Below the pieces are notes generated by a model that did no database searches, was not told where the DNA came from, and saw only the letters and a list, made by a program, of their open reading frames with translations. The position numbers were made by a program, and so were the translations under genes. Shown piece by piece: positions 6,129 through 28,445 of a stretch of 28,445 nt of DNA (positions within the stretch are counted from its first letter, which is position 1; every line of letters starts with the position of its first letter). This stretch comes from Thermococcus sp. JdFR-02 (lineage in GTDB: Archaea; Methanobacteriota_B; Thermococci; Thermococcales; Thermococcaceae). Location: contig MTLP01000008.1 in NCBI GenBank assembly GCA_002009975.1, positions 1 through 28,445 on the forward strand, in the 5' to 3' direction.

Positions 6129-6136
6129 TACCCAGC

Positions 6137-7908: not shown

Positions 7909-7930
7909 ATCATCCGCTTCCTTCCGCCTG

Positions 7931-8698
7931 ATGAACAGCAGATACATTGACTATGTGTTGTACTCAGCGCTCCTCCTTGGCGTCTTTGCAAGCATAGCGG
8001 GAGGGGTGCTGATGCTCTCACCGCACCTGGTCCTTTCCGGATTGGGGATAATAGCGGTCAGCGCGCTTCTGCTGAGGTTTGGTAATTGGCTGATACCTGC
8101 GTTGCTAGGCGTCAGTGGAACCCACCCTGTGTACGAGGCGCTGGAGTTGGAGGAAGACGCAGTACTGTTCCGTGAGGGTGGTGAGTGGGTTGCGGTGGGG
8201 TTTGTAATACTGGAGATACACATGAGTCCCCTTGAAGAGGGCGAGAAGCAGCAGCTTGCATACTTCAGCCTGCTCAGCAACTTTTACACTCACCTGCCAG
8301 AAGAGACGGTTATATCCATGTACCTCTCGCCAGTTGACATTGACGCCTACAGGCGTGAGCTGAAGAGGAAACTTCATACTGCACTGAGTGACCTGACAGA
8401 GGCGCAGCGCAAAGGGGAGGCAGGAAAAGAGAGGCAGCTGAAGCTGAAGGTGAAGGAGTTAGAGAAGCAGCTGGAGGCCATTGACCTTGACCGCCCCATT
8501 GATGTCGCCTTCGTCGCTAAGGTCGCGGCAAGAAATACATCCCGCGATGCGGCGCTCCAGACCATGAGGGAGAGGCGCACTAGGCTGGAGAGCACCGTGC
8601 GTGGGGTTCTCAGAGTGAGTACCCGCGTGGCAAGAGGGACAGAGATGGTTGATGTAATGAGGCTTGTGATGGCAATACCACAGCGAGAGTTTTTCTGA
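7931..8698 (+). CDS. Membrane-anchored coiled-coil protein, candidate VirB3/VirB4-N-terminal-like partner of the transfer ATPase
   Basis: Two N-terminal TM helices, then an alpha/beta domain interrupted by a coiled coil (RRELKRKLHTALSDLTEAQRK..LKVKELEKQLEAI); gene context. Confidence 0.55.
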   Translation: MNSRYIDYVLYSALLLGVFASIAGGVLMLSPHLVLSGLGIIAVSALLLRFGNWLIPALLGVSGTHPVYEALELEEDAVLFREGGEWVAVGFVILEIHMSPLEEGEKQQLAYFSLLSNFYTHLPEETVISMYLSPVDIDAYRRELKRKLHTALSDLTEAQRKGEAGKERQLKLKVKELEKQLEAIDLDRPIDVAFVAKVAARNTSRDAALQTMRERRTRLESTVRGVLRVSTRVARGTEMVDVMRLVMAIPQREFF

Positions 8699-8774
8699 GA
8701 TATACAAGCTTACAGAATGCGCTGAGAAAGCCCTGACTTCGGTCAGATGATAAATCTGGGAAGTGGGCAGACTC

Positions 8775-8789
8775 TTTATATACTTCCAC
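8775..8789 (+). promoter_or_regulatory. TATA motif TTTATATACTTCCAC upstream of the pilin gene
   Basis: Identical to the 6114-6128 copy on the opposite strand. Confidence 0.7.
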
Positions 8790-8858
8790 TGCTTCTAAGC
8801 GGCAGGGTGACGAGACATGAAGGTCAAACCCGCACAGGTGCTGCAAGAGGTGACTGGC

Positions 8859-9290
8859 ATGCTGTATGTCAGGATTGCAGCTCTGCCGATGAAATTCAAA
8901 ACAACCACAAGCAGAATTATCAGTGTACTGTTCGTTATGAGTACAGCCCTGCCAAGTGTTTATGCTGGCAGTCTGTGGGATGATTTTTTCAGCAAGATCC
9001 CACTGATACAGAACCAGTTCTACGTTAACGATCTGGCTAAGTTCGGAGCATACGTGTGTGGTTTTCTCTTAGGCTTAGGGGTTATCATGTATACAATTGG
9101 CTATGCATTCGCTGGGGACCGCCCAGAGGCCGCAGGGTTGCTTAAGTGGGGCAAAAGGCTTATAGTTGCGGGCTTCCTCGGCGTATTGCTGTTAGGTGTG
9201 ATCCCATATCTTATAGACTGGTTCCGAGGACAGGTGAACGCCCCTGAAGTGCCCACGTGGGGTGGGGAACAGAAGACAATCTCGGTGTGA
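8859..9290 (+). CDS. VirB2/TrbC-type (CedA1-like) conjugative pilin candidate
   Basis: RBS GAGGTGA before ATG 8859; signal-like segment ending VYA|G, then two TM helices joined by a short charged loop (GDRPEAAGLLKWGKRLIVAGFLGVLLLGVIPYLIDWF). Confidence 0.7.
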   Translation: MLYVRIAALPMKFKTTTSRIISVLFVMSTALPSVYAGSLWDDFFSKIPLIQNQFYVNDLAKFGAYVCGFLLGLGVIMYTIGYAFAGDRPEAAGLLKWGKRLIVAGFLGVLLLGVIPYLIDWFRGQVNAPEVPTWGGEQKTISV

Positions 9291-9301
9291 GGTGACATAC
9301 G

Positions 9302-9913
9302 GTGAACATTGTGTTTGTCGGCCCCGGACAGGGTAAGAGTATTACAGCTGCATTGCTTGCAGTCACGCATGTCGTTACCGCCTACGACGCCGACCCTTAC
9401 AGGGCACTCGTGGAGTTGTACCCTCGGGCCGAGGTCTACGAGGGACCCGATGATCTCATACCGCCGTGCATCATTGACACCAGCCGTGTTGACAGGAGGG
9501 GTAGACCATACCTTGCAGTAATCCGTGAAAACCCGGGGGCGTGGGTTATTCTCGTGACCACCCCATTCTTCCATCAGGTGGCAGTGGCGCGGCGTGTTGC
9601 GAAGGACGTGAAGGATTGCACAGGTACCGCGGTGCGGGGCGTAATAGTGAGCATGGCAGCAAGCGAGGATGAGGCAAAGAGCGTGGCTGAACGGCTCGGT
9701 GTTCCCCTCACTGGCTGGCTACCGCTGTCGAAAGCTCTCGAGGAAATGCTCGCCACCGGTACCGTTATTTCCGAAAAAGAGGATGGTGCATCACCTGTTG
9801 GGGATGCCGCACTTATCGAGCGCATACTAGCGCTTGGAAAGGAGCTGGGACTACAGGTTCGCCTGCGACAACGCGATAAGAAGAGAGGCAGATTACCGTG
9901 GCTAAAGCGCTAA
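9302..9913 (+). CDS. Degenerate MinD/ParA-like P-loop protein
   Basis: IVFVGPGQGKS P-loop without the signature Lys, YDADP, IIDTS, LVTTP, GVIVS, LGVPLTGWLPLS; RBS GAGGTGA. Confidence 0.75.
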   Translation: MNIVFVGPGQGKSITAALLAVTHVVTAYDADPYRALVELYPRAEVYEGPDDLIPPCIIDTSRVDRRGRPYLAVIRENPGAWVILVTTPFFHQVAVARRVAKDVKDCTGTAVRGVIVSMAASEDEAKSVAERLGVPLTGWLPLSKALEEMLATGTVISEKEDGASPVGDAALIERILALGKELGLQVRLRQRDKKRGRLPWLKR

Positions 9914-14455: not shown

Positions 14456-15014
14456 GGCAAATCACCTTACTGAACATCCTCTTTACCTCTTCGGGGGCGT
14501 CTTCCACCGCAACGATCATAAGAGGTTGATCACTGGAGAGCGCAGCCTTAATCTTATCAATCAGCGCCTTGGAACCTTCCAGCCTCGCGCCGACTATCAT
14601 GACTATGGGCTTTCGCACCGCCCTCAGCAGCTCCGCAGCTCTGTCCTCCTCCCCCTGGTACAGAAGCTCAATGTGAGCATCCCGGAAAGCTGTGGTTCTT
14701 GTGGCTCCGCAGAAGTCCAGAACAAGCACATTTGACATCAGTCTCTTGGTGTAAAGACTGAGAGCAAGGCTTCTTGCGCAATCACGATATCCCTTCCCTA
14801 CAAAAAGCACATGCTCTTCTCCAGATAATCTGCATACAGAGGATCGCCTCCAGCTCTCTACAAATAAAGCACCCACCTTTTTCAACCACTCTGACAGGAT
14901 TCTGAACACGGCGGTTCCGCGTTCCCACATCTTCCCTACTCTCTTCAAAACCTTACCTTCCGATTCCCAGAGCTCCCTCAAGCATTGCGACAGTCTCCAT
15001 TTCACAGGACACAC
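14448..15014 (-). CDS. Hypothetical protein with remnant MinD-like P-loop fold
   Basis: HVLFVGKGYRDCARSLALSL..NVLVLDFCG mirrors the strand/P-loop/helix/VLxLD layout of MinD but lacks GKT; a motif-type TATA lies upstream. Confidence 0.55.
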   Translation of the reverse strand: MCPVKWRLSQCLRELWESEGKVLKRVGKMWERGTAVFRILSEWLKKVGALFVESWRRSSVCRLSGEEHVLFVGKGYRDCARSLALSLYTKRLMSNVLVLDFCGATRTTAFRDAHIELLYQGEEDRAAELLRAVRKPIVMIVGARLEGSKALIDKIKAALSSDQPLMIVAVEDAPEEVKRMFSKVICLK

Positions 15015-15033
15015 CGAGGAAGAGAAGAGGTAA

Positions 15034-15046
15034 GAGGTATATAAAG
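15034..15046 (-). promoter_or_regulatory. Variant of the shared motif (CTTTATATACCTC)
   Basis: 20 bp upstream of the GTG at 15014, compatible with a leaderless transcript. Confidence 0.5.
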
Positions 15047-15187
15047 AGGAAAATTTCCATTTTCCACTATCTCCGGCAGGAGGAGAAAAGAGAAGTATAA
15101 AAAGGAGTCAACACATCTGGTTTTTCACCCTAAAAGGTGAATTGTGATACGAAAATGACTGGAGTTCCTCACTTGCACTATAACCCT

Positions 15188-15256
15188 TTCACGTTTCAAT
15201 TAAGTTTTCAGCTTTCCGGGACCAAAACCTTCACGTTTCACTCAGCTTGCGTTTCA
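15188..15256 (+). repeat. Short direct repeats TTCACGTTTCA / CGTTTCA
   Basis: TTCACGTTTCA at 15188-15198 and 15230-15240, CGTTTCA at 15250-15256, GTTTTCA at 15204-15210. Confidence 0.6.
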
Positions 15257-15387
15257 AACATATACCTACTCGCTTATATCTTTGGGTTTTTTAACACCTT
15301 GGCTTTTTAATGCAGGTATTAATATATCTTTTCTAACGAAATATTTATACTTTTCGTCCTGTAATATGACACAAGGAGCGAAAAAGG

Positions 15388-15819
15388 ATGAAGCTGGTGA
15401 AAATTTATCTTGATTCCGACATCTGGCTGAACTTCTGGAAAGGTGAAATGATAGGCATGATACCAGCGTTTCACTTTACGGAAGAACTCCTCAGAAAGGC
15501 GGTGCTGGAAAGATGGGTTGTTGTGGTATCTGAGTTGGTCAAGGAAGAGGTCTTTGAAAAGGGCGTGTCTCCAAATGATTTTGATGAAAAAATTAACGAG
15601 CTGGAATCCGCAGGGTGTGTGATAGAGAAAGCAGAAGTCACAGAGGAAGACGTTAAGTTTGGCTTGGAGTTAAGGAGGGAAAGAGGAATCCATCTTTCTG
15701 ATGCAATTCATGCAGCCATCGCAAAAAGAGTTAATGCAATTATAGTGACGAGAAATATAAGACACTTTAAACTCGTTGCAGATATAGTTAAGGTTAGAAA
15801 ACCCGAAGATCTGCTGTAA
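15388..15819 (+). CDS. vapC: PIN-domain (VapC-like) ribonuclease toxin
   Basis: IYLDSDIW, SELVKEEV, HLSDAIHAAIA, IVTRNIRHF acidic PIN motifs; canonical BRE-TATA CGAAATATTTATA at about 15337-15349. Confidence 0.93.
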   Translation: MKLVKIYLDSDIWLNFWKGEMIGMIPAFHFTEELLRKAVLERWVVVVSELVKEEVFEKGVSPNDFDEKINELESAGCVIEKAEVTEEDVKFGLELRRERGIHLSDAIHAAIAKRVNAIIVTRNIRHFKLVADIVKVRKPEDLL

Positions 15820-15825
15820 AGCTTA

Positions 15826-16047
15826 TTATTTTATTATGCTGAGATCCCAACCTTTCTTCTTAAACAAGCGCTTCAGGGCTCTTTCTTTTTGTTCGATGGT
15901 AAGCGGACCACTTTCAATCTTGTGTTTCAAACTCCCCCGCTGAAGTCTAATCCTCCAAGTTGCTATCTCCTTTCTTGTGTCTTGGTCTTTCACCTCTCTC
16001 TCAAGCTTCTCCAACTCTCGCTTGAGACTCTCAACAACCACGGACAT
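15826..16047 (-). CDS. Small charged helical protein, possible antitoxin convergent on the PIN gene
   Basis: 73 aa, RBS GGTGGAG; stop lies 6 bp from the PIN stop. Confidence 0.6.
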   Translation of the reverse strand: MSVVVESLKRELEKLEREVKDQDTRKEIATWRIRLQRGSLKHKIESGPLTIEQKERALKRLFKKKGWDLSIIK

Positions 16048-16153
16048 AAAACTCCACCTATTTACACTTACCTACTTACCTAACTATTTATATTTTTACC
16101 ATAAACAAGTATTCATAATAATAATGCGTAACCTCTGCGTTGTAAGAATGACG

Positions 16154-17944
16154 CTATAAAAACTCTCGCAACATTTCTTCAAACGCTGCGATTGCATTTT
16201 GACGGCACTGCTCAGCTATACGTTGGTTTAGTGATGCTCTGCCTCTTGGAGTATGCAATACGTTATTCCTTTTTTTCCTGCAGTAATCGATATCGTCGTA
16301 TGAAGACAAATAAACCTTTCTTCTTCTCAGCATGTCTTTGAATTGGTTCATTAATTCTCCTCTTAGATCGTATTCTGTAAGATCTTTTCCACACTCCGGA
16401 CATGCAGTTTCTGTCCCTCTAAGTTCTTTTCTACATTTTGGGTTAGGACATATGTAAGAGTACTCAATACGGTTTCTTTTTACTCTTTTAGCTTTCTTTT
16501 TTAGGTAAGTTCGTATCCTTGGAGTTTCTCCATCAGAAATCATTTCTGCTTTAATGAAGAATTCTAAAACTTGCCAAGAAAGGATAACAATTTCTTCATA
16601 TGTCTTATTTTGATATTTTTCTTTTAATTCATTATAATATTGCTGTGATTTTGAGAAAAAGTCTTTCGCCTTTATACTTGAATATTTAGACAGTTTTCGC
16701 TGGATATATATGTCAATTTCTGATAATTTAGGTTCGATAGGTTTTTCAGCATAATTTTCGGCAAAATCGTTTATTGAATAGCCATAACTATCCCACTGTT
16801 TAAAGAACTCTAAAACGTGCTCATCCAATACAAACATTTCGATTAGCATGTTGGTTACAGTATAGCCGCAACCTGCGTTTATTAAAAGTTGATCCAATTT
16901 TCCTGGAATTTTCCTCTTTTCGATACGGGGATTTTTTACTAATAGATTGAATATTTTTAATCCTTCTGATGGGTCTATTTTATTAATTTCGAGTTCCTGA
17001 TAGAACTTCCAGATTTTCGTTAGACCTTGATTAAAGTAGGGTGAAGATTCAGCTATTTTATTTATGAGATTTGGAATGTGTTGCTTTATTTTATTCTTAT
17101 AGACACTTTCTATTAGTTCCTTATCTATCTGTCTTTTTCCCTTTTCAAATGCTTCTTTGCAGAGACGTTTACATCTGCTCAGAAGAGTTCTTGGGTTACC
17201 TTCAGAGATTTTCATAAGATACTGTGTAGCGTCTTCTGTAAAAACATCGTTCAGATTTTTAGAAACGGTTTTGAGTCTTCTCTCAACTATCTCTTTGACT
17301 TCAGCTGCATTAAGCATGTCTAATTCAATGGCGTTCTCGCGGTCTAAGTAACTTAAGTCTTTGGAATTCAAAAATTCCCAGTCTGGTGAACAGGAAATTA
17401 TTGTCAGCGCGCTGATCTTAAGTCGCTGTAACATGTTTTGATTATCCTTTAAAAATTTGTTAATAACTGCCATATCCTTTTTTGAATTTAGTTTATCCAG
17501 CTCATCTATGCAGAATACAGGCAGTATAGGAATCTCACCGCGCGTATAATGTTCCATAACTTCTTTTAGATTTTCTGGAGAGTATTCTGGACAATCTCTT
17601 ATTCCCATCTTTGCAACTAAATTCTTATAGATAATTTTAAAAATATGTGTGGCAATTTGATAGGGGTCCCTCTTTATAGAGGAGATGTCTGGTTCTATTT
17701 TAATTCCGAAAGCATTGTCATGCAAACTGGCTTTGTACGTAATAACGTTAAGGAGAGTGGATTTTCCAATGCCTCTGGGCCCTATCAGCAGTCTTAAGTC
17801 TCCTTGCTTGCTGTCAAAAATTTTCTCAATTTCTCCTAAAATAGATTTTATTTTTCTAGTTTCTACAAATATTTCGTAATCTCCCAATGAAGGATCCAGT
17901 GGAACATCTCTCCAAGGATCCTTTGAAAATCCGAACCAATCCAT
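16154..17944 (-). CDS. AAA+ ATPase fused to a C-terminal HEPN-like domain with inserted Zn ribbon (candidate defence protein)
   Basis: Walker A GPRGIGKS, Walker B CIDELD, sensor-2 SEGNPR; C-terminus SWQVLEFFIK..CPNPKC..CPEC..RNNVLH (RxxxxH); canonical BRE-TATA CGAAAGATTTAATA upstream; AT-rich. Confidence 0.85.
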   Translation of the reverse strand: MDWFGFSKDPWRDVPLDPSLGDYEIFVETRKIKSILGEIEKIFDSKQGDLRLLIGPRGIGKSTLLNVITYKASLHDNAFGIKIEPDISSIKRDPYQIATHIFKIIYKNLVAKMGIRDCPEYSPENLKEVMEHYTRGEIPILPVFCIDELDKLNSKKDMAVINKFLKDNQNMLQRLKISALTIISCSPDWEFLNSKDLSYLDRENAIELDMLNAAEVKEIVERRLKTVSKNLNDVFTEDATQYLMKISEGNPRTLLSRCKRLCKEAFEKGKRQIDKELIESVYKNKIKQHIPNLINKIAESSPYFNQGLTKIWKFYQELEINKIDPSEGLKIFNLLVKNPRIEKRKIPGKLDQLLINAGCGYTVTNMLIEMFVLDEHVLEFFKQWDSYGYSINDFAENYAEKPIEPKLSEIDIYIQRKLSKYSSIKAKDFFSKSQQYYNELKEKYQNKTYEEIVILSWQVLEFFIKAEMISDGETPRIRTYLKKKAKRVKRNRIEYSYICPNPKCRKELRGTETACPECGKDLTEYDLRGELMNQFKDMLRRRKVYLSSYDDIDYCRKKRNNVLHTPRGRASLNQRIAEQCRQNAIAAFEEMLREFL

Positions 17945-18248
17945 CCAGTTAATTTTAGACCCTCCAACCCAACATTATATTGATATTAAAAAGGTTACTT
18001 TAAAATACTCCGTATTAAATCTTTCGAAACCGGAACTGAATTGTAGAACTGCATAAGTGCGTTATAGCAACGGCAGTACACACGAGCGAAATTTCACCAG
18101 AGTTGGCATGACCATTTGACTCTTATAACAGACGGGAGGGAAGAAAGGATTTAATAGTCAATGACATAGTTCCAAAGGTGTTAAAGGATGGAATTTTTAT
18201 ATTCTGTGTTGCATTAAATTTATTAAGATTATTAAGCTAAATATAACT

Positions 18249-19532
18249 ATGAAAGAAGAATTTTTAAAAATAATTCTTATAACAGGTCTAATCATTGTTT
18301 TTAATGCCATTCCAACTAGTGCAATTACATCCCCAGAGGATTACTTATATGAATATAATTACACCAGCGAGAAGACATATATAGAAACCATTTATTTTGA
18401 TGGAACTATTTTGTATTTATTTGTATATTGCACCTCGGAGTGCACCATTGTAGTTTTTGATCCTGAAAATATGGTACCGTATTTTGATAAGAATAAACTT
18501 ATTGAAATATTTAAAAATCTCGAAACGAAAAATTACATTAAGGCTAAAAATATCAAACCAGACCTTTATGATAATGTGATAAATGATTTAGGTGTAGATG
18601 GGGCGACTACTTGCAGAGTGTTTGATTATACCGATGTAGTAAAAGATACTGCTATAATTCAAACAGAAAATGTGATCATTAATTACTTGCCAAATAACGA
18701 TAGACAAAAAGCATTGTATATAGCTGCGGTGATAAATAAAGCAGCTGATGTAAGAAAATATAGTGTGCCAATTGTAACTTTGTCGGTTGCTTGTTGGGGG
18801 GAGGATATTGTACTTAGTGAATTTACAACAAATGGGAAAACTGCTAAGGAATCCATCATAAATTTAAATAAAAACATTTTCTTGACAGGACAGCCTGATA
18901 CGTTATTTTCTTCTCATAAAAGATTTGTCTTAAGTCTTAGAACACAAAAATTTTCTCCAAAAACTATTGAAAATACTATTTTAACAATAATTAAAAACCT
19001 TCTGGGTGGTGATGAGGAATTGATAATAACCAAAATAAATAAATGGCATGATAAAACATCCATTTATTTCAAACCAGAAGAACTTAATATTATCAATTCA
19101 AAGGCGACCGAAAATTCTAATAAGTCAATTACTAGATTAGAAAAATTAAAAAAAGAAGTATCTGAGAATATAACAAGTCTTTCAGAGGAAATACAATCAG
19201 AAATTACCAAACGTAAAAATAAACTTCCATATTCTCTATTATTTGATTTTAATTATACTTTAGCTGATAACAGACTCTTAATCGCCAAAAATTTTTTGAA
19301 AGACGCAAAAACATCTTTCCAGGCTTATAGATACAATACAGCAAAACAACTGTTACAAAAAGGTTATTCGGCATTAGCAGAAGCCAAATCTGCAAGACAA
19401 AAAGCCGAAAACACAAAACCCACCTTATGGAAATTAGGTGTGTGGATTTTGGTTATATTTGGATCATTATACTTTAAAAAATTAAAATTTGCTGCTTTAG
19501 TAATTTTTCTTTTGATTTTAATTATTGTGTGA
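18249..19532 (+). CDS. Secreted/membrane-anchored coiled-coil protein (AT-rich)
   Basis: Signal peptide ending PTSA|I, C-terminal coiled coil and two TM helices; BRE-TATA GAAAGGATTTAATA at about 18143-18156. Confidence 0.8.
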   Translation: MKEEFLKIILITGLIIVFNAIPTSAITSPEDYLYEYNYTSEKTYIETIYFDGTILYLFVYCTSECTIVVFDPENMVPYFDKNKLIEIFKNLETKNYIKAKNIKPDLYDNVINDLGVDGATTCRVFDYTDVVKDTAIIQTENVIINYLPNNDRQKALYIAAVINKAADVRKYSVPIVTLSVACWGEDIVLSEFTTNGKTAKESIINLNKNIFLTGQPDTLFSSHKRFVLSLRTQKFSPKTIENTILTIIKNLLGGDEELIITKINKWHDKTSIYFKPEELNIINSKATENSNKSITRLEKLKKEVSENITSLSEEIQSEITKRKNKLPYSLLFDFNYTLADNRLLIAKNFLKDAKTSFQAYRYNTAKQLLQKGYSALAEAKSARQKAENTKPTLWKLGVWILVIFGSLYFKKLKFAALVIFLLILIIV

Positions 19533-19568
19533 TTCCAAATCATACAATAAATCCTTGAAAGAGCATCT

Positions 19569-20423
19569 TTAAGTAATTTCATCTAATGTTCTTAATTCTA
19601 TCCTGGATACATTATTTAATGGGACATCAACTAAGTAAGTTGTTCCGTCTTTTCTTTTCTTCAGAATTTGGACAGAATTAGAATCAATTCTTTTTATTCT
19701 TCCAGTAATACTTTTCTTAGGATTTTTTAAATATATCTCACCGTAACGAAATGAATCTTTTGTAATTCCCTTTTCTAATGCGATGAGAGTTAATGCTAGA
19801 AAGATATGTAGGTAAATAAATATACCGGTTGGAATCGATGTTTTTGATATTAAAATCATATATCCGAATATAAACAGAATATATGAGCGTAAACCTATAA
19901 AAAAGACAATATAAATTACTGCAGCAAGGAGGAATCTTTTATTTTCATTCAATAATCTAAAAGTATTCTCAAAAACCCTACTTATTACTACCATTATTGG
20001 ATTTAATGGTTTGTTATTTCTATCATTAGACTTTAGGAACTCTTTTATTATTGGATCTACTTCGTCATATGAAAATTTTGTTTCACATCTCATGCTTTTC
20101 ATAATAGCTAACCAAGCTATTATTGAAGAATAAGTTATCGTAATAATTTTTAATAAGGTACTGTAAAATTCACTTTCTATTATAAACCATGAGCGGGGAA
20201 AATATTGAATGGTAAAATATACCAAATAAAGCGATAAACCAAGATAATAAAATAAATAAAACATACCTAGGAAATTTTTAGAATATGATTCAATTTTAAC
20301 GGTATGACGGGTGTAAAAATAACCAAAATAAGGAAAAAGTGAGGCTATCACTATATAAATTAAATTTGAATTAATTAATCGAGGGAGTAGCGATTCTAGC
20401 ATTAAATTTTGAAATTCTGACAT
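19569..20423 (-). CDS. Polytopic membrane protein with C-terminal Sm/SH3-like beta domain (AT-rich)
   Basis: Start moved to ATG 20423 (RBS GGTGAGG); about 6 TM; tail EIYLKN..ITGRIKRIDSNSVQI..VDVPLNNVSRIEL. Confidence 0.75.
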   Translation of the reverse strand: MSEFQNLMLESLLPRLINSNLIYIVIASLFPYFGYFYTRHTVKIESYSKNFLGMFYLFYYLGLSLYLVYFTIQYFPRSWFIIESEFYSTLLKIITITYSSIIAWLAIMKSMRCETKFSYDEVDPIIKEFLKSNDRNNKPLNPIMVVISRVFENTFRLLNENKRFLLAAVIYIVFFIGLRSYILFIFGYMILISKTSIPTGIFIYLHIFLALTLIALEKGITKDSFRYGEIYLKNPKKSITGRIKRIDSNSVQILKKRKDGTTYLVDVPLNNVSRIELRTLDEIT

Positions 20424-20472
20424 CAGCCTCACCAACAAACTAAAATATAGAGTATGAAAAAGATAAAGGTTT

Positions 20473-20680
20473 CTACATTGTTAAAAAAGTGGCCAAGGAG
20501 ACTATTTCCAAAGCCTCCAGCTCCTCCAAACCCTGTTAAAGGTTGTTTTACTCATGCCCAGCTCCTCTATTATCTCCTTCTTTTGGAGAGGTCAAAGAGC
20601 CTGTTGTCTATCAGAAAGTCAAATATCCTGAGCTGGGACGATCTTCCAAGGGCACGCGACAACAGAGACTCTTTTTCCAT
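20473..20680 (-). pseudogene. Frameshifted, truncated winged-helix transcriptional regulator
   Basis: Manual translation across two frameshifts (about 20582 and 20525): MEKESLLSRALGRSSQLRIFDFLIDNRLFDLSK/KEIIEELGMSKTTFNRVW/ELEALEIV, an ArsR/TrmB-like wHTH that lacks its wing. Not in the ORF track. Confidence 0.75.
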
Positions 20681-20920
20681 TAAAGACATACTCGCTTATA
20701 TTCTTGGGGGATAATAAAAAAGAATTTGCTCAATCAGAATGATTTCTCCTTCATCTCTTTAGCATAGATTTTTTTGGTCGCCAAGCATCAATTTTACCTC
20801 CCGAAAGAAATATCCGCCTATCAACGCTTAGAAATAAATAAAGAGAACCTTCTCCCTCACAAATGGTATCCGACGTTATGTTTATACTTTGTTATAGAAA
20901 TGTTTAAACAGTGAGAAGCG

Positions 20921-21091
20921 ATGGACATCGAAGTGCGCATGGTGCTGCAGGGCGAAGAGGTCGTTGAACGTGTGGTGAAGCGCATAGGCAACAGCGGTCA
21001 CGTAACGCTACCAAGCAACTGGATAGGCGAGAAGGTGAAGGTGATACGCCTGAAAAAGGATACGCAGGCAGAAGATGGAGGAGAAGGATGA
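20921..21091 (+). CDS. DUF2080-family (AbrB-like, transposon-associated) small protein, 56 aa
   Basis: Manual translation MDIEVRMVLQGEEVVERVVKRIGNSGHVTLPSNWIGEKVKVIRLKKDTQAEDGGEG; VK..GNSGHV.LP..WIG.KVKVI signature; ATGA overlap with 21088. Not in the ORF track. Confidence 0.88.
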   Translation: MDIEVRMVLQGEEVVERVVKRIGNSGHVTLPSNWIGEKVKVIRLKKDTQAEDGGEG

Positions 21092-21432: not shown

Positions 21433-21510
21433 GAAGCGAAAGGTTGAAGTGGGATAAGGAAGGAGGTTTTTAAGAATCCCACCTTATATCTGTTGGGTGA
21501 GGTGGTTGAG

Positions 21511-22341
21511 ATGCGTGCGAAGGCTGTGCTTGCTGTAACGCTGGCAGTATTAATCGCAGTGGCGACGCTGCCGCAGGCGTGGGCGTACGTGGAGGATCCG
21601 TTTGACGAGATTGAAAGCAAACTGGTTGAAAAGTATAACATCAAACACGACAGGCACTTTGTAGACCGGAGAGCGCTTGCCAAAGTCCTCGAAAGTAAAC
21701 CGGAGTCTGAGCTGACAGCCGAAGAGGCTTACTGGCTTGCCTTTTGGGAGATTTCTAAAAGCATTGAGAAAACCAAGCACTACGCAGACCTGATGCTCCA
21801 GAAGGACAGCTCACACCAGTACCAAGTACTCTATTATAGGGTATTAGCTGATGCTTATGGCGGAGCAAACATGGGTTACCCAGATATCGAGCTGACGAAG
21901 AAAGAGGCAGAGTATGCAATGAAGGTCATCGAATTGAACCCTGACGGTCAAGTGGGTGACTACAACTACTGGAGCATGCTTGCCAGCGCACTCATGCGCC
22001 CCAGCGAGATCGACCTCTCCTTAGTTTCGGAGAAGGTCTGGAAGTTCCCGCAGGAGATATACGAGAGCGGCGAGTACAAGTACCTGAAAACGCAGGACGA
22101 CCTGAAGAAGATAGGCTATTACAAGTGGAAGGAAGAGGTTGCAGAGCCGCACCTGGAGAAGCTCGGGAACACGTTCACCTGGAAGCTTGCCAGAAAGCTG
22201 CCAGTGATAAAAGACAGCAAGGAGTACACGAGCCTCTTCGGTGCATTTGGCTGGTACATAATGGGTGCTGCTGCGGTTTTCGTGGCTATCATGGGATACC
22301 TCGCGGTGAGAAGGCTCAGGAGTAGGGCAGGGACTGCGTAG
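21511..22341 (+). CDS. Secreted helical protein with C-terminal membrane anchor
   Basis: RBS GGTGAGGTGG before ATG 21511; signal peptide ending AWA|Y; C-terminal TM followed by RRLRSR. Confidence 0.85.
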   Translation: MRAKAVLAVTLAVLIAVATLPQAWAYVEDPFDEIESKLVEKYNIKHDRHFVDRRALAKVLESKPESELTAEEAYWLAFWEISKSIEKTKHYADLMLQKDSSHQYQVLYYRVLADAYGGANMGYPDIELTKKEAEYAMKVIELNPDGQVGDYNYWSMLASALMRPSEIDLSLVSEKVWKFPQEIYESGEYKYLKTQDDLKKIGYYKWKEEVAEPHLEKLGNTFTWKLARKLPVIKDSKEYTSLFGAFGWYIMGAAAVFVAIMGYLAVRRLRSRAGTA

Positions 22342-22359: not shown

Positions 22360-25296
22360 TCAGTACACCGTGAAGGTCACAACCTTCAGGTACTTTTTCT
22401 TCTTGAAAAAGGTTCCCTCCTCTTGGTAGAGGGCAGTGCTGTTGCTGCAGTTAGGCGTCACGTCATTGCACTCTGGCGGAACTTTCTCCTCATAGAACCA
22501 CTTCCTATAAACCTCCGACGCAGGGTAGTCGACGTGATTAAGTATCGCCGTTATCTCAGCCGAACTCACTCCAGCATCACTTAGATTATGCGAGCCACGA
22601 TACTCCAGGTCGGCTTTCACCTCGCTACTCAGCGCCCACTTCGTACTGCAGAATTCCTGCACAAGATAGCATGTTATGTTGTCAGGATTGGTTGTCCATG
22701 CCGGAGCCACAGAGAACCTGTCGGTGATCGTGTGCCAGGTTTTGCCTCGATAGTAGACGTAGGCGATGGTGCTCGTCGGAATGTAAGTATACTCTAGGTC
22801 GTTGGGCTTATAGTCGGTGCTCTGCTTCGTGGGATCGTACACGTACACAACAAACTCGTTGCCCCAGAACGTATCAACGTAGGAGACACCCACAGCGTAC
22901 TGCTTCGGTGCAGGCACGCACTGCACCTGCTTGCTGCACTTGAGGCTGCCCACCCTTGCCTCAAGTGTGTGATAGATATTGCTGCTGCAGGTTATCGTCA
23001 CGCTCTTGCTGAACCTTCCTGTCGAGTCTGTCGTGACCGTAGCGATCAGGTTACCGTCCAGGTAAATGCCCACCGGCTCGTTTGGCACGCCTCTCCCGCT
23101 GGCGTCCTTCACGTAACCGTTGAAAACCACGCTCTGCCCGCTGTTCACCTGTGTCGCGCTCACGGAGCAGGTCACGCTCGCCGGTGTAGAGCAGCAGTTG
23201 CTCGCTGAGTACGTCTTCGAGATCACCGTGCCCGTGCAGCCGCCGTTGCAGTCGCCGGTGGCGCATTCTGTCGCCTTTACTGTAACGCTGGTAGCCCTGC
23301 TACAGTCCAGAAGCGAGTCGTACGCAGACTTCGGTACGGAAAGGCTGAAGTAACCTGTGGGCGGGTTACCGCTCACGTCGGTCATGGTGCAGGCGACGCG
23401 CTGGCCGTTGATGTAGAGTTCCACCTTACCTCTGACGCCAGCGTTATCTCTTGTGAGCCTGCCGCTCACGCTTATCCCCGTGCTGCAGATGCCGTCCAGA
23501 TTTACGTTCAGGTTGCTGAAGGTGAGCGTGTCTGTGCTGGGCACGCACTGCCCATTGACACATATATACCCGGGAGGACAGTCAGCATCGCTGGTGCAGC
23601 CGCCCCCTGGCTGGCAGGTTCCGTTAACGCAGCGATAGCCCGGCGGACAATCGCTGTCGGAGCAGCACCCGTTTGTGGCGTCTACGCAACTACCGTCGGG
23701 ACAGGGCTTGGTCCCGCTCGGGCAGAGGCACGCGCTGGTAGAGCACTCGTGCTCCACTCCCTTCGGGTCGGTCCAGCGCACCCATATCGGTGTGGAGCCA
23801 GCGGGCTTTGGCTTGGTGAGGCGGTAGTAGCCCTGGGAATCGGTGGTGACAGCGAAGTTTGAGCCCCAGGCAGCGTGGTAGATGAAAACGGTCTCGCCTG
23901 CCTGCGGGCGGCAGCCGCTTGGGGTGTTGTAGCAGACGCGACCGCTAACAGTTACTGTGCCGTCGCCGTTGTCGGTGCAGTCGCAACTCAGTGAGTAGTT
24001 GCAGAATACCCAGTTGTTGGCGCAGGTCTGGCAGGAGGTCTCGCACCAGGTCTGGCAGCCGCTCTGGCAGGAGAACAAGCACGGGCTACCTTCACAGGCG
24101 GTCTCACAGCCCACTAAGCACGAGGTCTCGCACTGACCGCCGAATGGGTTGCTGCATGTTTGTGGCGGCGGCTCTATCGTGACCCATACGCCGCTCTGGC
24201 CGCCGACGACCCAGTGAAGATGATCGGGGGGATAGCTTCGTGCGATGCCCTCTCTGACCATCCAGTGATTATCTGGGTAGGGGGTTGACCAGTATAACTC
24301 GTCGGTGATGATTGGGCGTATCCTTACGATACCGGTGCCGTCACCATTGTCTCGGACTTCTTTCACCTGGTCTCGGATGCGCCAGCTCACATAGTACTGT
24401 GCGCCAAGCTGGTTCAGGATATTCTCCAGGTCCTGTGCTGCCTTGCGGGCTGCTTGATCGAGGGGCATGTTTTGGGACTGCCAGTAATACCAGGTCTTTA
24501 GGGCAAACTCATTTGCGTAGTATCTTTCCCAGAGCTTCATCTGTTTGATCAGCTCAAGCGGTCTTGCAGGAATCCGCTGACCGTTGATTTCGATTGTAAT
24601 TCGATAGCCGCTAGAAACTTCAGGCGTGCCGATAACTTCTTTAGCAAAGGCTTCTGGAAGGGAAGACTTCTTCAGCGTGCTACCCAGCAGAGCGCCGGCT
24701 GCGTTGGCACCTATTGCTTTGAGCACGCCCCTGCGGGAAGCAAGGATACCTTCAGGATACGGATGCTCGATTACACTGAATGCCCAGCCTATCTGTAATT
24801 CGAGCGCTTCTGGCTCCTCGGTGAAGAAATAGTCGCTAACCCAAGCCCGGCCAAGCTTCTCGTCATACTCGCTCTCAGCGAGAATGACATCAAGTTCGGC
24901 CTCTATGAATGTTTTTAGCTGACCGTAAGCTTTTTCCGCCTCGTTCCTGCGCTCTTTCAACCAGCCGTCTAAAAAGCGAGGGCGGAGACGGAAGTCGAGA
25001 CGCAGGAAACCGTGTTCAAAGCAGGAGACCTCCCTGATAAGAAAGACGTTTATTTTTTCAGCGAACTGCTTTATCTTCTCTGCGGTGTCTGTTGCCCAAG
25101 CAATGTAGTCCTGTTGCCATCCCTGATTGTAGCTTGCGCACCAGAGTCCATGAATTTTCTGAAGCCTGATTACATAGGGTGAGGCGTCACTGCGGAGTAC
25201 GACTGTGATCCTATAATGGTCTTTTTCATCAATCAGCGCAACGCAGGATGTGCGGTTGAGAATCTCTAACTTCTCGCCACTATTGCCAGTCATCAT
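22360..25296 (-). CDS. 978-aa Cys-rich multidomain exported protein with embedded CxxxC repeat (putative radical SAM substrate)
   Basis: Internal SRRGVLK Tat-like motif (aa 187), CxxxC array (aa 381-432), CxxDxDCPPGYxCVNGxC repeats, Ig/carboxypeptidase-regulatory-like repeats (VTTDSQGYY, VTTDSTGRFS); RBS GGAGTGA. Confidence 0.85.
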   Translation of the reverse strand: MMTGNSGEKLEILNRTSCVALIDEKDHYRITVVLRSDASPYVIRLQKIHGLWCASYNQGWQQDYIAWATDTAEKIKQFAEKINVFLIREVSCFEHGFLRLDFRLRPRFLDGWLKERRNEAEKAYGQLKTFIEAELDVILAESEYDEKLGRAWVSDYFFTEEPEALELQIGWAFSVIEHPYPEGILASRRGVLKAIGANAAGALLGSTLKKSSLPEAFAKEVIGTPEVSSGYRITIEINGQRIPARPLELIKQMKLWERYYANEFALKTWYYWQSQNMPLDQAARKAAQDLENILNQLGAQYYVSWRIRDQVKEVRDNGDGTGIVRIRPIITDELYWSTPYPDNHWMVREGIARSYPPDHLHWVVGGQSGVWVTIEPPPQTCSNPFGGQCETSCLVGCETACEGSPCLFSCQSGCQTWCETSCQTCANNWVFCNYSLSCDCTDNGDGTVTVSGRVCYNTPSGCRPQAGETVFIYHAAWGSNFAVTTDSQGYYRLTKPKPAGSTPIWVRWTDPKGVEHECSTSACLCPSGTKPCPDGSCVDATNGCCSDSDCPPGYRCVNGTCQPGGGCTSDADCPPGYICVNGQCVPSTDTLTFSNLNVNLDGICSTGISVSGRLTRDNAGVRGKVELYINGQRVACTMTDVSGNPPTGYFSLSVPKSAYDSLLDCSRATSVTVKATECATGDCNGGCTGTVISKTYSASNCCSTPASVTCSVSATQVNSGQSVVFNGYVKDASGRGVPNEPVGIYLDGNLIATVTTDSTGRFSKSVTITCSSNIYHTLEARVGSLKCSKQVQCVPAPKQYAVGVSYVDTFWGNEFVVYVYDPTKQSTDYKPNDLEYTYIPTSTIAYVYYRGKTWHTITDRFSVAPAWTTNPDNITCYLVQEFCSTKWALSSEVKADLEYRGSHNLSDAGVSSAEITAILNHVDYPASEVYRKWFYEEKVPPECNDVTPNCSNSTALYQEEGTFFKKKKYLKVVTFTVY
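23545..23664 (-). repeat. Two tandem CxSDxDCPPGYxCVNGxC modules
   Basis: CSDSDCPPGYRCVNGTC and CTSDADCPPGYICVNGQC in the 978-aa ORF. Confidence 0.85.
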
Positions 25297-25424
25297 ATCA
25301 CTCCCGGCAGAAAGGGAGGGATGGTTTCTAAAAAGATCACTTTTCGGGCAATTCTAGGGGAACACAAGAGGAGATCCGCCACGCTTCAGTGGTCTTTCCA
25401 AACCGTAGAAAAAAAGAGAGCACT

Positions 25425-25456
25425 GCTCGGACTGGCGGGGGTGGACCAGTCCGAGC
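25425..25456 (-). terminator. 11-bp perfect hairpin followed by a T-tract on the minus strand
   Basis: GCTCGGACTGG(25425-25435)-N10-CCAGTCCGAGC(25446-25456); the minus strand continues AGTGCTCTCTTTTTTT. Confidence 0.5.
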
Positions 25457-25709
25457 GGGCGACGGAGGGGGAATTGCTGGCACTGATTATCTTGCATAAA
25501 CAGATATAAGTTACTTCTCCGAGAGCGCCGGAAAACTGACACAATAATGCTGAGCAAGCCTGTTATTTCAACCAAGAGACAAATCTTGGCGCAACGTCCT
25601 GATTCATTCTAATCACGGCAAAGAAGTGATTTGGAGTAGTTCACGTCAAGCGGGTTGCTGCGGTCTCGCTTTTTTTATACATCTTCTTTACTCTGCTTCT
25701 GGTGGTTGC

Positions 25710-26834
25710 ATGGGATGTGCATGTGAGAATGGGGTCTCTTTCAGAAGAGTATCTGAACTCACCGTGATACCAACATACGCGTGTAACTTTGATTGCACCT
25801 ACTGCTTCGTGCATCATAGCTGGAACGAGGTGCCTACGCAAAAGGTGATGAGCAGGCGTATCGTCGACCGTATCCTCGACTTCTTTATTCCCGGGAAAGT
25901 TGAGAAAGAGTTTAATTTCTGGTTCTTCGGCGGGGAACCGCTCATACCAGCGGTCAGGGACACAGTGATGTACGCAGTGGAGAGAGTCAGAGAGGTTGCC
26001 CGCGAACACGGTATCCGCGTAACCATCGGCGCAACCACCAACGGATACTATCTTGACGGGGACTTCATTGAGTGGTGCTTGCAACAAAACTTCAGGTTGC
26101 TCATAAGCTACGACGGATACCACAACCAGCGTATATTCCGCGGACGCAAAGGGCATCGCGAGGAAGATGCAGAGGTGGTAGAAGAGAACATTCGCATGTT
26201 GCACGTGACCGAGAAAGGGAAGATGCTCGCACCCACAGCTGCGATGCAACTCCCTCCAAGAGGGCTAAAAAGACTTTACAACAATGTTATGAGCGCCTTT
26301 GACCTGGGATTCAGGAGCGTTGCACTGAACAAGGTCACTGGCAGGACAGGAGGATACTCCGCAGAGGATATCAGGATACTTGAACGTGAGCTTTCTCGCT
26401 TGGTGGAATTTCTGAAGCGGGAACGAAGCAGAGCCCCAGAAGAGAGACGCAGCGTGGAGTTCTTGGAAAAGAAGATAAACTTCTTGTGTAGCCCCTCCTT
26501 CCTGAGCAAGCAAGTATTCCAGAATGATAACAGCTGCGGCGCCGCAAAGGGATCCTTGAGTGTGGGACCAGACGGCAGCATTTACCCCTGCCAGAGAATG
26601 CACTTCTCGAGGTTTTGGCTTGGCAATGTGGTGGAGGGCAAGTTCTTCTTGGCAAAACGCACCGCCCTAGCGGAGCACCGGCCTGCAGGGTGCCTCGGCT
26701 GCGAGGTGCGTTGCGCACCATGCTATGCTGCCAGCTATGAGGTGCTCGGGAACATTGACGGCGTGCCAGAGCACGAGTGCATGTTCGAGAGGGCGTTCTT
26801 TAGGAAGGCCAGGGAGTTTGCGCTCACCGTCTGA
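25710..26834 (+). CDS. Radical SAM/SPASM-domain maturase (anSME/SCIFF-maturase-like)
   Basis: Start moved to ATG 25710; CNFDCTYC, FFGGEPL, TTNG, ISYDG; SPASM CGAAKGSLSVGPDGSIYPC..CLGC..C..C..C; no N-terminal RRE extension. Confidence 0.95.
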   Translation: MGCACENGVSFRRVSELTVIPTYACNFDCTYCFVHHSWNEVPTQKVMSRRIVDRILDFFIPGKVEKEFNFWFFGGEPLIPAVRDTVMYAVERVREVAREHGIRVTIGATTNGYYLDGDFIEWCLQQNFRLLISYDGYHNQRIFRGRKGHREEDAEVVEENIRMLHVTEKGKMLAPTAAMQLPPRGLKRLYNNVMSAFDLGFRSVALNKVTGRTGGYSAEDIRILERELSRLVEFLKRERSRAPEERRSVEFLEKKINFLCSPSFLSKQVFQNDNSCGAAKGSLSVGPDGSIYPCQRMHFSRFWLGNVVEGKFFLAKRTALAEHRPAGCLGCEVRCAPCYAASYEVLGNIDGVPEHECMFERAFFRKAREFALTV

Positions 26835-26883
26835 ATGGTTTTTTTAGAAATCTTACGCCCCTCATGTGGTGAGGTGGCTGAAG

Positions 26884-28445
26884 ATGCGCGAATCCGTGCC
26901 AGTTGCCTGCCTGCTCGTGCTCATGCTTGTTCTAGCCACCCCTGCGGCGGCTGTAACATACGTGCCGGGTTACATTGAGATAGAGAAGCCCCGCGAGAAC
27001 ATCACGGTGCGCGTGCCAGTGGCTATAGAGTCTGGAAGCACTCCTCCGCAGGGTGATTATCAGGAACCCGGAGAGCCAGCGTCTGGAATTAACATAACGA
27101 TACTCTTCCCGCCAGATGGGCTCGAGTCCTTGGTGAGCAATATCACCGCCTACGGCAGGGCATGGTCTAGGGATACCGTCACAAAGGTGGAGTTTCGCCT
27201 CAATGGAGGCGCTTGGGAGACTGCCAGCGGCACAACCTCGTGGACGACACCCTCGCTTCAGCTGGTGGACGGCTGGAATACAATAGAAGTGCGTGCCCAC
27301 GACAGCAAAGGTAGGGTTACAACCGCGAAGGTGAAGGTGAAATACACGCCTGAGGTGGTCTCGCAAGGGGAGTGGCGCGTCTATCGCGTGCCTGTCACTA
27401 TCAAGTTTTTCGGTTGGTACAGCCAAGCAGTATTCTACACCGACACTGGCTTCAAGGTGGTAATTAAAGCAGAGGGGGATGGAGCAAGCTACAGAGAACA
27501 TCGCAGAGATCCGCTCACAAACCGGCTCCACCTCTATGTATATGATCCTCAAGGGAGGTTGTACGCAGACAGCTACACCATTGCAGTGGGTCAGGGCAAG
27601 ACTGTTCCAGGAAAGTTGGACTTCACCTATGAGATGTGGGATGCTGACTATGAGCCAGACTATACACTTTACTACTACGAGGTCTGGCAGGCATCAAGGG
27701 GTCTAAGCACACCCAAGATATATTACTCCGAAGACGATGGTGGCTGGCTTCACATCAAAAACCTGAAGGTGTGGCTCTATGAGCCGAAGAATCTTCAGAG
27801 AAGCTACTCTATAACCAAAACGCTTGTGCACTGCTCGTATGATGACGATGACTGGGGTGTGTTCACTGGTCTTTATCAGGTGTACTCGATAGGCAGCCTC
27901 AGCAAGACCTGCTATTTCCAGCATCCCGTCATACAAGGCAAGCTGGTGCTGTACGGCGACAAGGAGACTCCGCATGTTGTGCAGCAGTTCTACAGAGCCA
28001 CGCCGTTTGTTTACGCAAAGACTCTTGAGAAGAATTATGACTACGACTACTGCTGGAGTGGCCAACTCATTTACGGGGACAAGAAAACATGCTCGATGGA
28101 CAGATACAGGACGATATACCACCGGACCTTCTCCAGCACAGAAGTGACGAATAACAATGTGGTGCTGAGGGTAACCGATGATTCTGGTAGTCAGAGGACA
28201 ACGAGGCTTGAGACCTACAGGAGAAAGAGGAATGAGATAGACGGCTGGAAGTCAATCAACGATGCCTTCTCCGCGCCATCGCCAGCGGTCACCGTCTACA
28301 TCCGGAAGCAGGGTGGCTCCTGGGTCACTGCAGGCAGGTACACATTCGAGTACCCGTACAATGTCCACATAAGCTATGTGAGCAGTGTGAGCGAGTACTA
28401 CAGTGATCGCAGTATCAACGTAGGCACGGAGTACTTCTACGCCAG
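26884..28445 (+). CDS. Large secreted Ig-like domain protein, truncated by the window edge
   Basis: RBS GGTGAGGTGG; MRESVPVACLLVLMLVLATPAAA|V signal peptide; Ig-like VTKVEFRLNGGAW..LVDGWNTIEVRAHDSKG; frame open to the end, hence absent from the ORF track. Confidence 0.85.
   Translation, partial: MRESVPVACLLVLMLVLATPAAAVTYVPGYIEIEKPRENITVRVPVAIESGSTPPQGDYQEPGEPASGINITILFPPDGLESLVSNITAYGRAWSRDTVTKVEFRLNGGAWETASGTTSWTTPSLQLVDGWNTIEVRAHDSKGRVTTAKVKVKYTPEVVSQGEWRVYRVPVTIKFFGWYSQAVFYTDTGFKVVIKAEGDGASYREHRRDPLTNRLHLYVYDPQGRLYADSYTIAVGQGKTVPGKLDFTYEMWDADYEPDYTLYYYEVWQASRGLSTPKIYYSEDDGGWLHIKNLKVWLYEPKNLQRSYSITKTLVHCSYDDDDWGVFTGLYQVYSIGSLSKTCYFQHPVIQGKLVLYGDKETPHVVQQFYRATPFVYAKTLEKNYDYDYCWSGQLIYGDKKTCSMDRYRTIYHRTFSSTEVTNNNVVLRVTDDSGSQRTTRLETYRRKRNEIDGWKSINDAFSAPSPAVTVYIRKQGGSWVTAGRYTFEYPYNVHISYVSSVSEYYSDRSINVGTEYFYA

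Follow-up and report, generated by a model that had tools for sequence, protein, structure and literature searches.

A radical SAM/SPASM enzyme gene beside a very large archaeal protein with CxxxC runs: a candidate for thioether cross-linking within a full-size protein

The stretch of DNA analyzed here, called the window, is the entire contig C22 (MTLP01000008.1; 28,445 nucleotides, nt) of the 44-contig metagenomic bin Thermococcus sp. JdFR-02. It carries, next to each other, a gene for a radical S-adenosylmethionine (SAM) enzyme with a SPASM domain and a gene for a 978-amino acid (aa) protein with an internal tract of regularly spaced Cys. As the best available reading, we propose with moderate confidence that the enzyme modifies this neighboring Cys run by thioether-type chemistry before the protein is exported. 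What mainly supports the proposal is that, in viral records, such runs generally pair with radical SAM enzymes and that the run itself is conserved, rather than any conserved gene order around these two genes.

Both genes were present as an earlier note on this DNA had given them, as a 978-aa open reading frame (ORF) at 22360-25296 on the minus strand and a 402-aa ORF at 25626-26834 on the plus strand. The larger one encodes a multidomain, surface-type protein of 105 kDa, the putative substrate, with 49 Cys in all. Twelve of them lie in a core at aa 381-432 (24001-24156, minus strand), whose sequence is identical to the one quoted by the note; the other 37 fall outside it. The core consists of two CxxxC runs of three and four C-[E/Q/L]-x-[G/S/A] units linked by EGSP, the first comprising C389, C393, C397, and C401 and the second C406, C410, C414, C418, and C422, with C425 and C432 following. 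Within aa 389-425, four Cys are followed directly by Glu and three by Gln, and thus the core contains the Cys-Xn-Asp/Glu motif found in substrates of the thioether-forming enzyme PapB. Among 4933 stop-to-stop frames of at least 80 aa in the whole bin, the large ORF is the only one with a (Cxxx)3C run, and it has two; when the large protein was shuffled, at least one such run appeared in 97 of 20000 shuffles.

The run is strongly conserved. Homologues of the large protein include P0122 (64% identity), P0123 and P0124 (45-46%), as well as P0143, P0146, P0147, P0156, and P0158, and the Cys run is intact in these last five. When four full-length proteins are aligned, the core has 36 invariant columns out of 52, all 12 Cys included, and is the best-conserved block of a family whose distant members share 39% identity overall. 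We found that AlphaFold2 assigned the core block pLDDT values (a predicted score of the local distance difference test) of mostly 25-27, with no confident fold, while both flanks folded confidently. Because the core lacks a confident fold, these models leave a disulfide module and a modified tract inseparable. One further metagenomic protein, P0144 (379 aa), has a different N terminus without the signal-like segment described below; each of its CxxxC runs is partly deleted and its core is shortened.

The enzyme gene occupies 25710-26834 on the plus strand and encodes a protein of 374 aa. Its ORF opens at GTG 25626; translation probably starts at ATG 25710, because all eight of the eight relatives begin there (MGCxC) and a TTTTTTATA box at 25671-25679 lies about 30 nt before this ATG. 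The box may be a promoter element. Counted from this probable start, 413 bp of intergenic DNA (25297-25709) separate the two divergent genes. A single 4701-base Logan contig of sequencing run X1 covers 22990-27690 without a difference and joins both genes; because X1 may be the source sample, this contig is not independent support of their adjacency.

The identification of the protein as a radical SAM/SPASM enzyme held up. The Radical_SAM model PF04055 scored 44 bits (cut-off, 29.5), and the cluster motif CNFDCTYC at residues 25-32, counted from the Met at 25710, is invariant in all nine family members. Equally invariant in all nine are the Cys of the C-terminal SPASM region (C260, C276, C294, C328, C331, C335, C338, and C357), which include the seven expected of this domain, although the SPASM model PF13186 itself stayed just below its cut-off (19.9 versus 21.5 bits). 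The best NCBIfam model was PapB (NF047865), with 118.8 bits against a cut-off of 340 and an alignment of residues 42-360 to positions 2-307 of the 330-position profile. It was followed by the SCIFF maturase (TIGR03974; 91 versus 425 bits), a nif11-type maturase (75.9 bits), and QhpD (73.3 versus 453 bits). Lower scores were obtained for the anaerobic sulfatase-maturating enzyme (anSME; 57 versus 349 bits), the CXXX-repeat enzyme (TIGR04115; 56.4 versus 350 bits), and cyclophane formers (35-52 bits), while the CrpC family (TIGR04463) reached 50.9 bits against a cut-off of 525 over the N-terminal half of the enzyme only. The protein thus lies outside the PapB, SCIFF-maturase, and CXXX-repeat families as well as the Crp family, for which an N-terminal RRE (the RiPP recognition element; RiPPs are ribosomally synthesized peptides that carry post-translational modifications) is expected in addition to the cut-off score. 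Its highest family scores are nonetheless those of Cys-thioether formers (PapB, 118.8 bits; the SCIFF maturase, 91 bits; and QhpD, 73.3 bits), and its best match in the PDB is CteB (1.6e-17). On these comparisons, the enzyme is a SPASM protein of the thioether-forming neighborhood that resembles PapB and SCIFF maturases, in line with the interpretation in the earlier note, and belongs to none of these families.

The same alignments bear on how a substrate would be recognized. Enzyme residue 47, counted from GTG 25626, already pairs with CteB residue 101, and 24 residues precede the cluster motif; the protein therefore has no RRE-sized N-terminal domain. We also found no small Cys-dense periodic ORF and no PqqD-like ORF anywhere in the window. 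A 62-aa ORF in the intergenic region has no Pfam match and is not kept in the enzyme-bearing locus L081. The note's remark that no small precursor, PqqD, or RRE was evident is thus borne out, down to the absence from the enzyme of the N-terminal extension of about 100 aa seen in CteB. The enzyme family is very small, comprising eight other clusters (at 90% identity) that are 43-84% identical to it, further full-length matches being at about 30% or less. Close relatives were found neither among 185,579 species genomes (best, 28%) nor in IMG/VR (best, 24%).

A main part of the evidence comes from other proteins with such runs. With aa 360-470 as query, 1.84 billion representative sequences were searched without a profile, and 13 proteins were returned. 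Eight of these (P0148-P0155) are 584-1212 aa long, and in the five that were read the C-[E/Q]-x-x runs are very long; the other three are known from the match table and the unit tally alone. One of the eight, P0152, gave a weak match to the CXXX-target model TIGR04117 (16.2 bits). Subsequently, a scan of IMG/VR DNA for C-E-T-x-C-E-x-x-C-E-T-x-C-E yielded 27 loci, among which 14 records with ORFs bearing (Cxxx)4C or longer runs (G133-G146) were used for a pairing test. The remaining 13 loci, from 12 further records (L153 and L150 share one), had no run or a short one (33 aa in a 68-aa frame in L139; 25 aa in L148). The viral run proteins are 600-2400 aa long, with runs of up to about 500 aa.

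The composition of the units is similar throughout. In the large-protein family (63 units), Glu or Gln occupies position +1 in 78%, Thr position +2 in 41%, and Gly or Ser position +3 in 81%. Glu or Gln at +1 rises to 93% in the long-run proteins found by homology (462 units) and to 90% in the viral ORFs (763 units), where the search pattern biases the figure only slightly because it fixes four units per match. As judged from these tallies, a C-[E/Q]-[T/V]-[G/S] consensus is common to all three sets, and three units of this kind also occur in the canonical SCIFF sequence CQTSCQSACKTSC.

We found a radical SAM ORF on the same strand, at most 2.2 kb downstream of the run gene, in 11 of the 11 viral records with a visible 3' flank; in the other three (G133, G142, and G144), the run gene reaches the contig end on its 3' side and nothing is visible downstream. 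The enzyme follows the run gene after 4 bp in G135 (L169; run gene 5206-8196, enzyme ORF 8200-9555) and after 23 bp in G141, where two enzymes lie in tandem, and is adjacent in G138. The distance is 763 bp in G134 and G140, 0.8 kb in G145, 858 bp in G136, 1.7 kb in G137, 1.9 kb in G146, and 2.1 kb in G143. Ten of the 11 cases are clear, and the eleventh, G139, is an incomplete match at 13.7 bits. As a control, none of the three searchable records that matched the pattern without carrying a run had a radical SAM gene. The pairs, mapped to loci L166-L185 and L195-L199, do not stem from a single lineage: the enzymes of G134 and G140 are the same, that of G136 is 66-68% identical to them, and those of G138 and G141 (G141_3458) share 61%, while the others are 20-44% identical. 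These pairwise identities indicate at least eight viral enzyme lineages (below 45% identity). In an NCBIfam scan of eight viral enzymes, six matched best to the SCIFF maturase, PapB, nif11, or QhpD models, all below cut-off, just as the window enzyme does; a second type (G138 and G141_3458) scored much lower and keeps the SPASM domain. Together, these data argue strongly that CxxxC-run proteins in viral records pair with radical SAM enzymes as a general rule. Our literature search turned up no relevant paper linking viral proteins that bear CxxxC runs to radical SAM enzymes, and the pairing appears to be unreported.

A paralogue of the large protein on contig C18 of the same bin offers a further comparison. 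It is 43% identical over aa 381-822, and the neighbor at the same position is kept (282 versus 292 aa), whereas a GFO/IDH/MocA oxidoreductase gene stands where the window has the radical SAM gene. The run of this paralogue is degenerate, with 7 Cys in 60 aa and one CxxxC. The loss of the run where the enzyme is missing counts for a link between the two; it comes from one paralogue only, which is a weakness of the argument.

How the enzyme might act can be pictured as follows. The RRE-less 374-aa protein would work in the cytoplasm on aa 381-432 of the 105-kDa protein and convert several core Cys to thioether bridges of the ranthionine type with nearby side chains. Within each C-[E/Q]-[T/V]-[G/S] unit, Glu or Gln at +1 or Thr at +2 would be the likeliest acceptors. 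Once stapled, the protein would be exported or anchored via its Tat-like segment, and the cross-linked run could serve as a linker of the head domain to the immunoglobulin (Ig)-like stalk that resists reduction, heat, and proteases. The note had considered a stapled stalk or a released peptide, and no observation points to the latter.

More tentatively, and with rather less confidence than we place in the modification of this run, we suggest that SCIFF may be the smallest member of a wider, so far undescribed system. In viruses and in mobile elements of both bacteria and archaea, fiber, stalk, or surface proteins would contain 7 to more than 100 C-[E/Q]-[T/V/S]-[G/S/A] units, each protein being accompanied by its own radical SAM/SPASM enzyme that stitches a ladder of thioether staples and thereby reinforces the structure covalently. 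The window would represent an archaeal exported version in which an RRE-less enzyme recognizes the folded protein rather than a leader. Should the pairing in the window be functional, thioether chemistry would be a building tool in a surface protein of 105 kDa from an archaeal mobile element and, at larger scale, in viral structural proteins, and SCIFF, a long-standing orphan peptide, would gain a structural context. The staples would form a new class of reduction-proof cross-links for protein engineering, with the C-E/Q-x-x run plus enzyme as a simple sequence signature for finding them. As a separate observation, canonical SCIFF peptides lie beside SCIFF-maturase-like genes in three unannotated fecal "Bacteriophage sp." records of GenBank (L189 5420-5632, L190 1002-1157, and L192 565-729), which could reflect bacterial DNA in these records or phage-borne SCIFF.

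Thioether bridges installed by enzymes are familiar mainly from small RiPP peptides, and not until 2026 did experiments show them on a full-size protein, one from an archaeon. In that study, Dieter et al. selected archaeal Cys-rich proteins adjoining radical SAM enzymes and showed that CrpC (TIGR04463), which has an RRE and a SPASM domain, installs ranthionine bridges on the 28.8-kDa CrpA of Methanococcus voltae (PMC13692751). The study also mentions further radical SAM-associated multidomain Cys-rich proteins and names QHNDH as a precedent (PMC13692751). The idea of the earlier note that such chemistry is applied to a large archaeal protein therefore has a precedent, as CrpC acts on an archaeal protein of 28.8 kDa (PMC13692751). 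The two systems are alike in that an archaeal radical SAM/SPASM gene lies beside a gene for a Cys-rich protein, not a peptide, and in the low structure-prediction confidence of the Cys region; the chemistry of CrpC, thioethers on repeated Cys motifs with Cys ahead of the acceptor, is of the kind considered here. In contrast, CrpC has an RRE and CrpA, as described there, a leader-like N terminus, while the window enzyme has no RRE and belongs to another family. CrpA is further described as having ten 17-residue repeats, whereas the window has a 52-aa run inside a multidomain protein of 105 kDa that bears a Tat-like segment and is encoded on a mobile-element-like contig. Judged from its sequence, the window system is thus new with respect to CrpC/CrpA in its enzyme family, the lack of an RRE, the placement of a short run within a very large protein that has a signal-like segment, and the mobile context.

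Other known systems resemble the pair in part. The SCIFF system (CteA/CteB; PF13165 and TIGR03974) shares the four-residue unit with the window core, and the enzyme has its nearest solved structure in CteB; however, the SCIFF peptide spans about 45 aa and three units as opposed to the 978 aa of the window protein, and the window enzyme lacks the N-terminal 100 aa of CteB. The CXXX-repeat systems (enzyme TIGR04115, target TIGR04117) share with it a Cys at every fourth residue in a predicted radical SAM target, yet the enzyme scores 56.4 against 350 bits and the core has no NCBIfam match; to our knowledge, these systems are uncharacterized predictions. QhpD forms Cys-Asp/Glu thioethers. Together with QhpC and with anSME, it exemplifies SPASM enzymes that modify proteins ahead of export, but the scores of the window enzyme (57 bits for anSME and 73.3 for QhpD) are far below the cut-offs, and genes for a sulfatase or an amine dehydrogenase are lacking. 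PapB, the maturase of freyrasin, links Cys to Asp or Glu in Cys-Xn-Asp/Glu motifs with n = 0-6 (PMC9413430). Its model is the top-scoring one over nearly the full length of the window enzyme, and such links would fit the C-E units of the window, although the enzyme is far below the NF047865 cut-off (118.8 versus 340 bits).

The large protein itself has features that bear on when and where it could be modified. Its N-terminal domain (aa 1-185; 24742-25296, minus strand), recognized from the homologue alignment and from AlphaFold2, is a folded alpha/beta domain that precedes a signal-like segment and is kept in frame in four of four full-length homologues. For aa 1-215, the mean pLDDT was 75.4 and the predicted template modeling score 0.73, and between aa 11 and 180 the majority of 10-residue blocks had pLDDT values of 75-96. 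A Foldseek search of the PDB with this domain gave no match (best E value, 0.077; template modeling score at most 0.3). An RRE-like nature of the domain was considered and is unsupported, as that fold search found no match.

The domain is followed by a putative twin-arginine translocation (Tat)-like signal or signal anchor (aa 186-218; 24643-24741, minus strand). It contains SRRGVLK (aa 187-193), a mildly hydrophobic stretch, and AFA (aa 216-218), and thus shows the elements of a Tat signal (S/T-R-R-x-F-L-K, a hydrophobic stretch, and an AxA site). The RR-x-F/V-L-K motif recurs in P0122, P0123, P0158, and the C18 paralogue, while P0124 shows none; P0146, P0147, and P0156 have a Sec- or transmembrane-like hydrophobic stretch at this position, where P0147 begins. 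The large protein has no N-terminal signal peptide, since the Tat-like segment is internal and comes after the folded 185-aa domain. No TatC above the cut-off was found in the bin (best, 17.8 bits), nor was any found with the TatC of locus L084 as query, and TatA genes are confined to contigs C18, C38, and C42. Thus, of the note's claim that the protein is exported, the signal-like motif remains, but it is internal and the bin yielded no TatC; export through an internal signal is plausible.

Beyond the segment, a first exported domain at aa 219-380 (24157-24642, minus strand) is predicted by AlphaFold2 to consist of two long helices followed by beta strands, with block pLDDT values of 60-91 across most of it in the model of aa 216-532; it has no Pfam family. 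The stalk (22939-23952, minus strand) comprises a CarboxypepD_reg-like domain (aa 449-500), Cys-rich CCSDxDCPPGYxC repeats (aa 523-590), and an Ig-like domain (aa 711-786), of which CarboxypepD_reg alone exceeded its Pfam cut-off (35.4 versus 32.3 bits). Searches for relatives of the large protein gave no tblastn match among plasmids, solely a 9% match to the Cys repeats among phages, no relative in the scan of viral contigs, and only matches limited to the Ig-like parts in 133 genomes of the phylum. PHROGs contributed nothing useful for it or for four viral run proteins.

Several observations weigh against a modification of this run by this enzyme. The earlier note had described the core as SCIFF-like, and C-[Q/E/K]-[T/S]-[S/A/G] is indeed a unit common to the core and the canonical CQTSCQSACKTSC; however, the match of the core to the SCIFF model PF13165 reached 7 bits, where the cut-off is 27, at an E value of 7.5, and NCBIfam, which includes the CXXX-target model, gave no match up to an E value of 10. 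The enzyme has no RRE and the putative substrate no evident leader. Close homologues of the enzyme lie in unrelated contexts. At L081 (enzyme 81% identical), the gene immediately upstream encodes a DNA methyltransferase, and beyond the enzyme the contig stops; at L082 and L084 (54%), TatC, a small membrane protein, and a 137-aa protein are present; and at L085 (42%), unrelated genes lie downstream. The visible flanks of these four loci contain no large-protein homologue and no Cys-dense ORF, and, besides the enzyme itself, no neighbor family of the enzyme homologues recurs in the bin. Judged from recorded contig sizes and source names, by which the linkage of the P-numbered homologues was assessed, none of the contigs with large-protein homologues (7052, 7814, 7270, 7252, 5355, 3605, 7550, 9855, and 4850) equals an enzyme-homologue contig on record, and two enzyme contigs of about 20 kb yielded no full-length large-protein homologue. 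The metagenome-assembled genome "Archaeon IPdc08" has homologues of both the large protein (GCC11499.1, tag 01554) and the enzyme (GCC11708.1, tag 01765), on separate contigs. Thus, the expectation of the note that homologues of the enzyme would neighbor large CxxxC proteins is answered in two ways: radical SAM pairing is general in the viral records (11 of 11) and both genes co-occur in IPdc08, but adjacency was not seen for the close homologues.

The unrelated contexts and the lack of a shared contig also favor an alternative that we consider unlikely, though not negligibly so, in which the Cys run is a self-sufficient disulfide ladder or metal-binding stalk segment and the radical SAM gene a passenger with another substrate. 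In an exported protein, such a run might do no more than form disulfides or bind metal, the EGSP joint between the runs might suit a hairpin, and the 37 further Cys of the large protein lie in repeats that are obviously of disulfide type. Contig C18 also carries what appears to be a thioredoxin-like exported CxxC protein. Yet a structural module would leave unexplained why a radical SAM gene lies just downstream of 11 of 11 observable viral run genes, why Glu or Gln is kept at +1 in 78-93% of the units, and why the run is lost in the paralogue without the enzyme, nor does it sit well with the lack of a confident predicted fold for a run whose flanks fold well. The enzyme might instead modify the large protein by other chemistry or at another site, through anSME-like conversion of Cys to formylglycine, C-C cross-links, or action on the CCSDxDCPPGYxC repeats of aa 523-590. 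SPASM enzymes catalyze many different reactions, and homology does not fix the chemistry here because all family scores are far below their cut-offs, including those for anSME (57 bits) and cyclophane formers (35-52 bits). Nevertheless, the three best models are thioether formers, and the repeats of aa 523-590 are present in the C18 paralogue, whose locus lacks the enzyme. The conserved Glu, Gln, or Thr beside each Cys moreover fits the ranthionine acceptors described in two studies (PMC9413430; PMC13692751), and we regard this alternative as improbable.

Equally improbable, in our estimate, is that the substrate is another product, either the exported protein encoded at 26866-28443 or an unrecognized small peptide elsewhere on the element. 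RiPP enzymes usually modify small peptides, and this general preference speaks for such a substrate, as does the 32-nt spacing between the enzyme and the downstream gene, which suggests one transcript. In contrast, the downstream protein is Cys-poor by eye, its near-identical copy on C18 has no radical SAM neighbor, and the window holds no small ORF with dense, periodic Cys, the 62-aa intergenic ORF being familyless and missing from L081. Thioether modification of the Cys run in the large protein remains the reading we prefer.

The contexts of the enzyme homologues contain one hint about substrates in general. At both loci with 54% identical enzymes, a TatC gene (35.1 bits versus a cut-off of 25.1) lies divergent to the enzyme gene (L084 1208-2401 and L082 3-692, both on the minus strand), and a membrane/coiled-coil protein of 117-119 aa is encoded in between. 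Because TatC adjoins these enzymes and the large protein has a Tat-like motif, the family may serve Tat-exported, prefolded substrates. Apart from this, runs X1 and X2 contain other Logan contigs whose match to the window begins only at 25748 or only at 26834. These breakpoints lie 38 nt inside the 5' end of the enzyme and at the last base of its gene, and the preceding sequences are unlike the window and not in the bin; the enzyme gene may thus have a variant context in these samples.

The gene downstream of the enzyme (26866-28443, plus strand) encodes an exported Ig-like protein of at least 526 aa, inside which the contig ends. It begins 32 nt after the enzyme stop codon, and because of this tight spacing the two genes are probably cotranscribed. 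A near-identical exported protein of about 520 aa is encoded at 43812-45373 of C18, which likewise ends inside the gene. Because both contigs end in near-identical copies, the assembly appears to have broken in a repeat. On the other side, convergent with the large-protein gene, an ORF at 21493-22341 (plus strand) encodes a protein of 282 aa that combines a signal peptide with a C-terminal anchor and has no Pfam or NCBIfam family.

The note's view that the pair is carried on a mobile element agrees with the content of the window. A family scan identified Orc1/Cdc6, TFB, ParA, a HerA/VirB4-like ATPase, and a PIN protein among its ORFs, most of the others having no family, and its GC content is 49% as compared to 36-39% for the large contigs C1-C10. 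Because of these genes and this departure in GC content, C22 looks like a mobile element. No tRNA genes were found in the window, and therefore no integration site could be defined. An island of low GC content (28-40% over 15000-21000, and 28-35% at 16-21 kb) interrupts the higher-GC contig. It contains the PIN protein (15388-15819), a 596-aa AAA/ORC-like ATPase (16154-17944, minus strand), and ORFs of 427 and 289 aa without a family, and may be a defense-type insertion.

Higher GC contents of 42-49% are also found in other contigs of the bin, the full set being C18, C22, C24-C26, C29, C32, C37, C38, and C42-C44. Sulfite reductase-like, NosZ-like, and TatA genes are present on C38 and C42, and a cytochrome c assembly gene on C18. 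Because of these genes on C18, C38, and C42, the higher-GC contigs, the window included, may derive from a second archaeon or element within the bin. Last, the low-GC chromosome of the bin has a RiPP-type cluster of its own on contig C5 (64065-65859; L194 3066-4860). It encodes an N-terminally extended radical SAM/SPASM enzyme of 485 aa and two small Cys-rich peptides with C-x-D-type motifs (67 aa with 6 Cys and 60 aa with 8 Cys), and is flanked by ABC-transporter genes.

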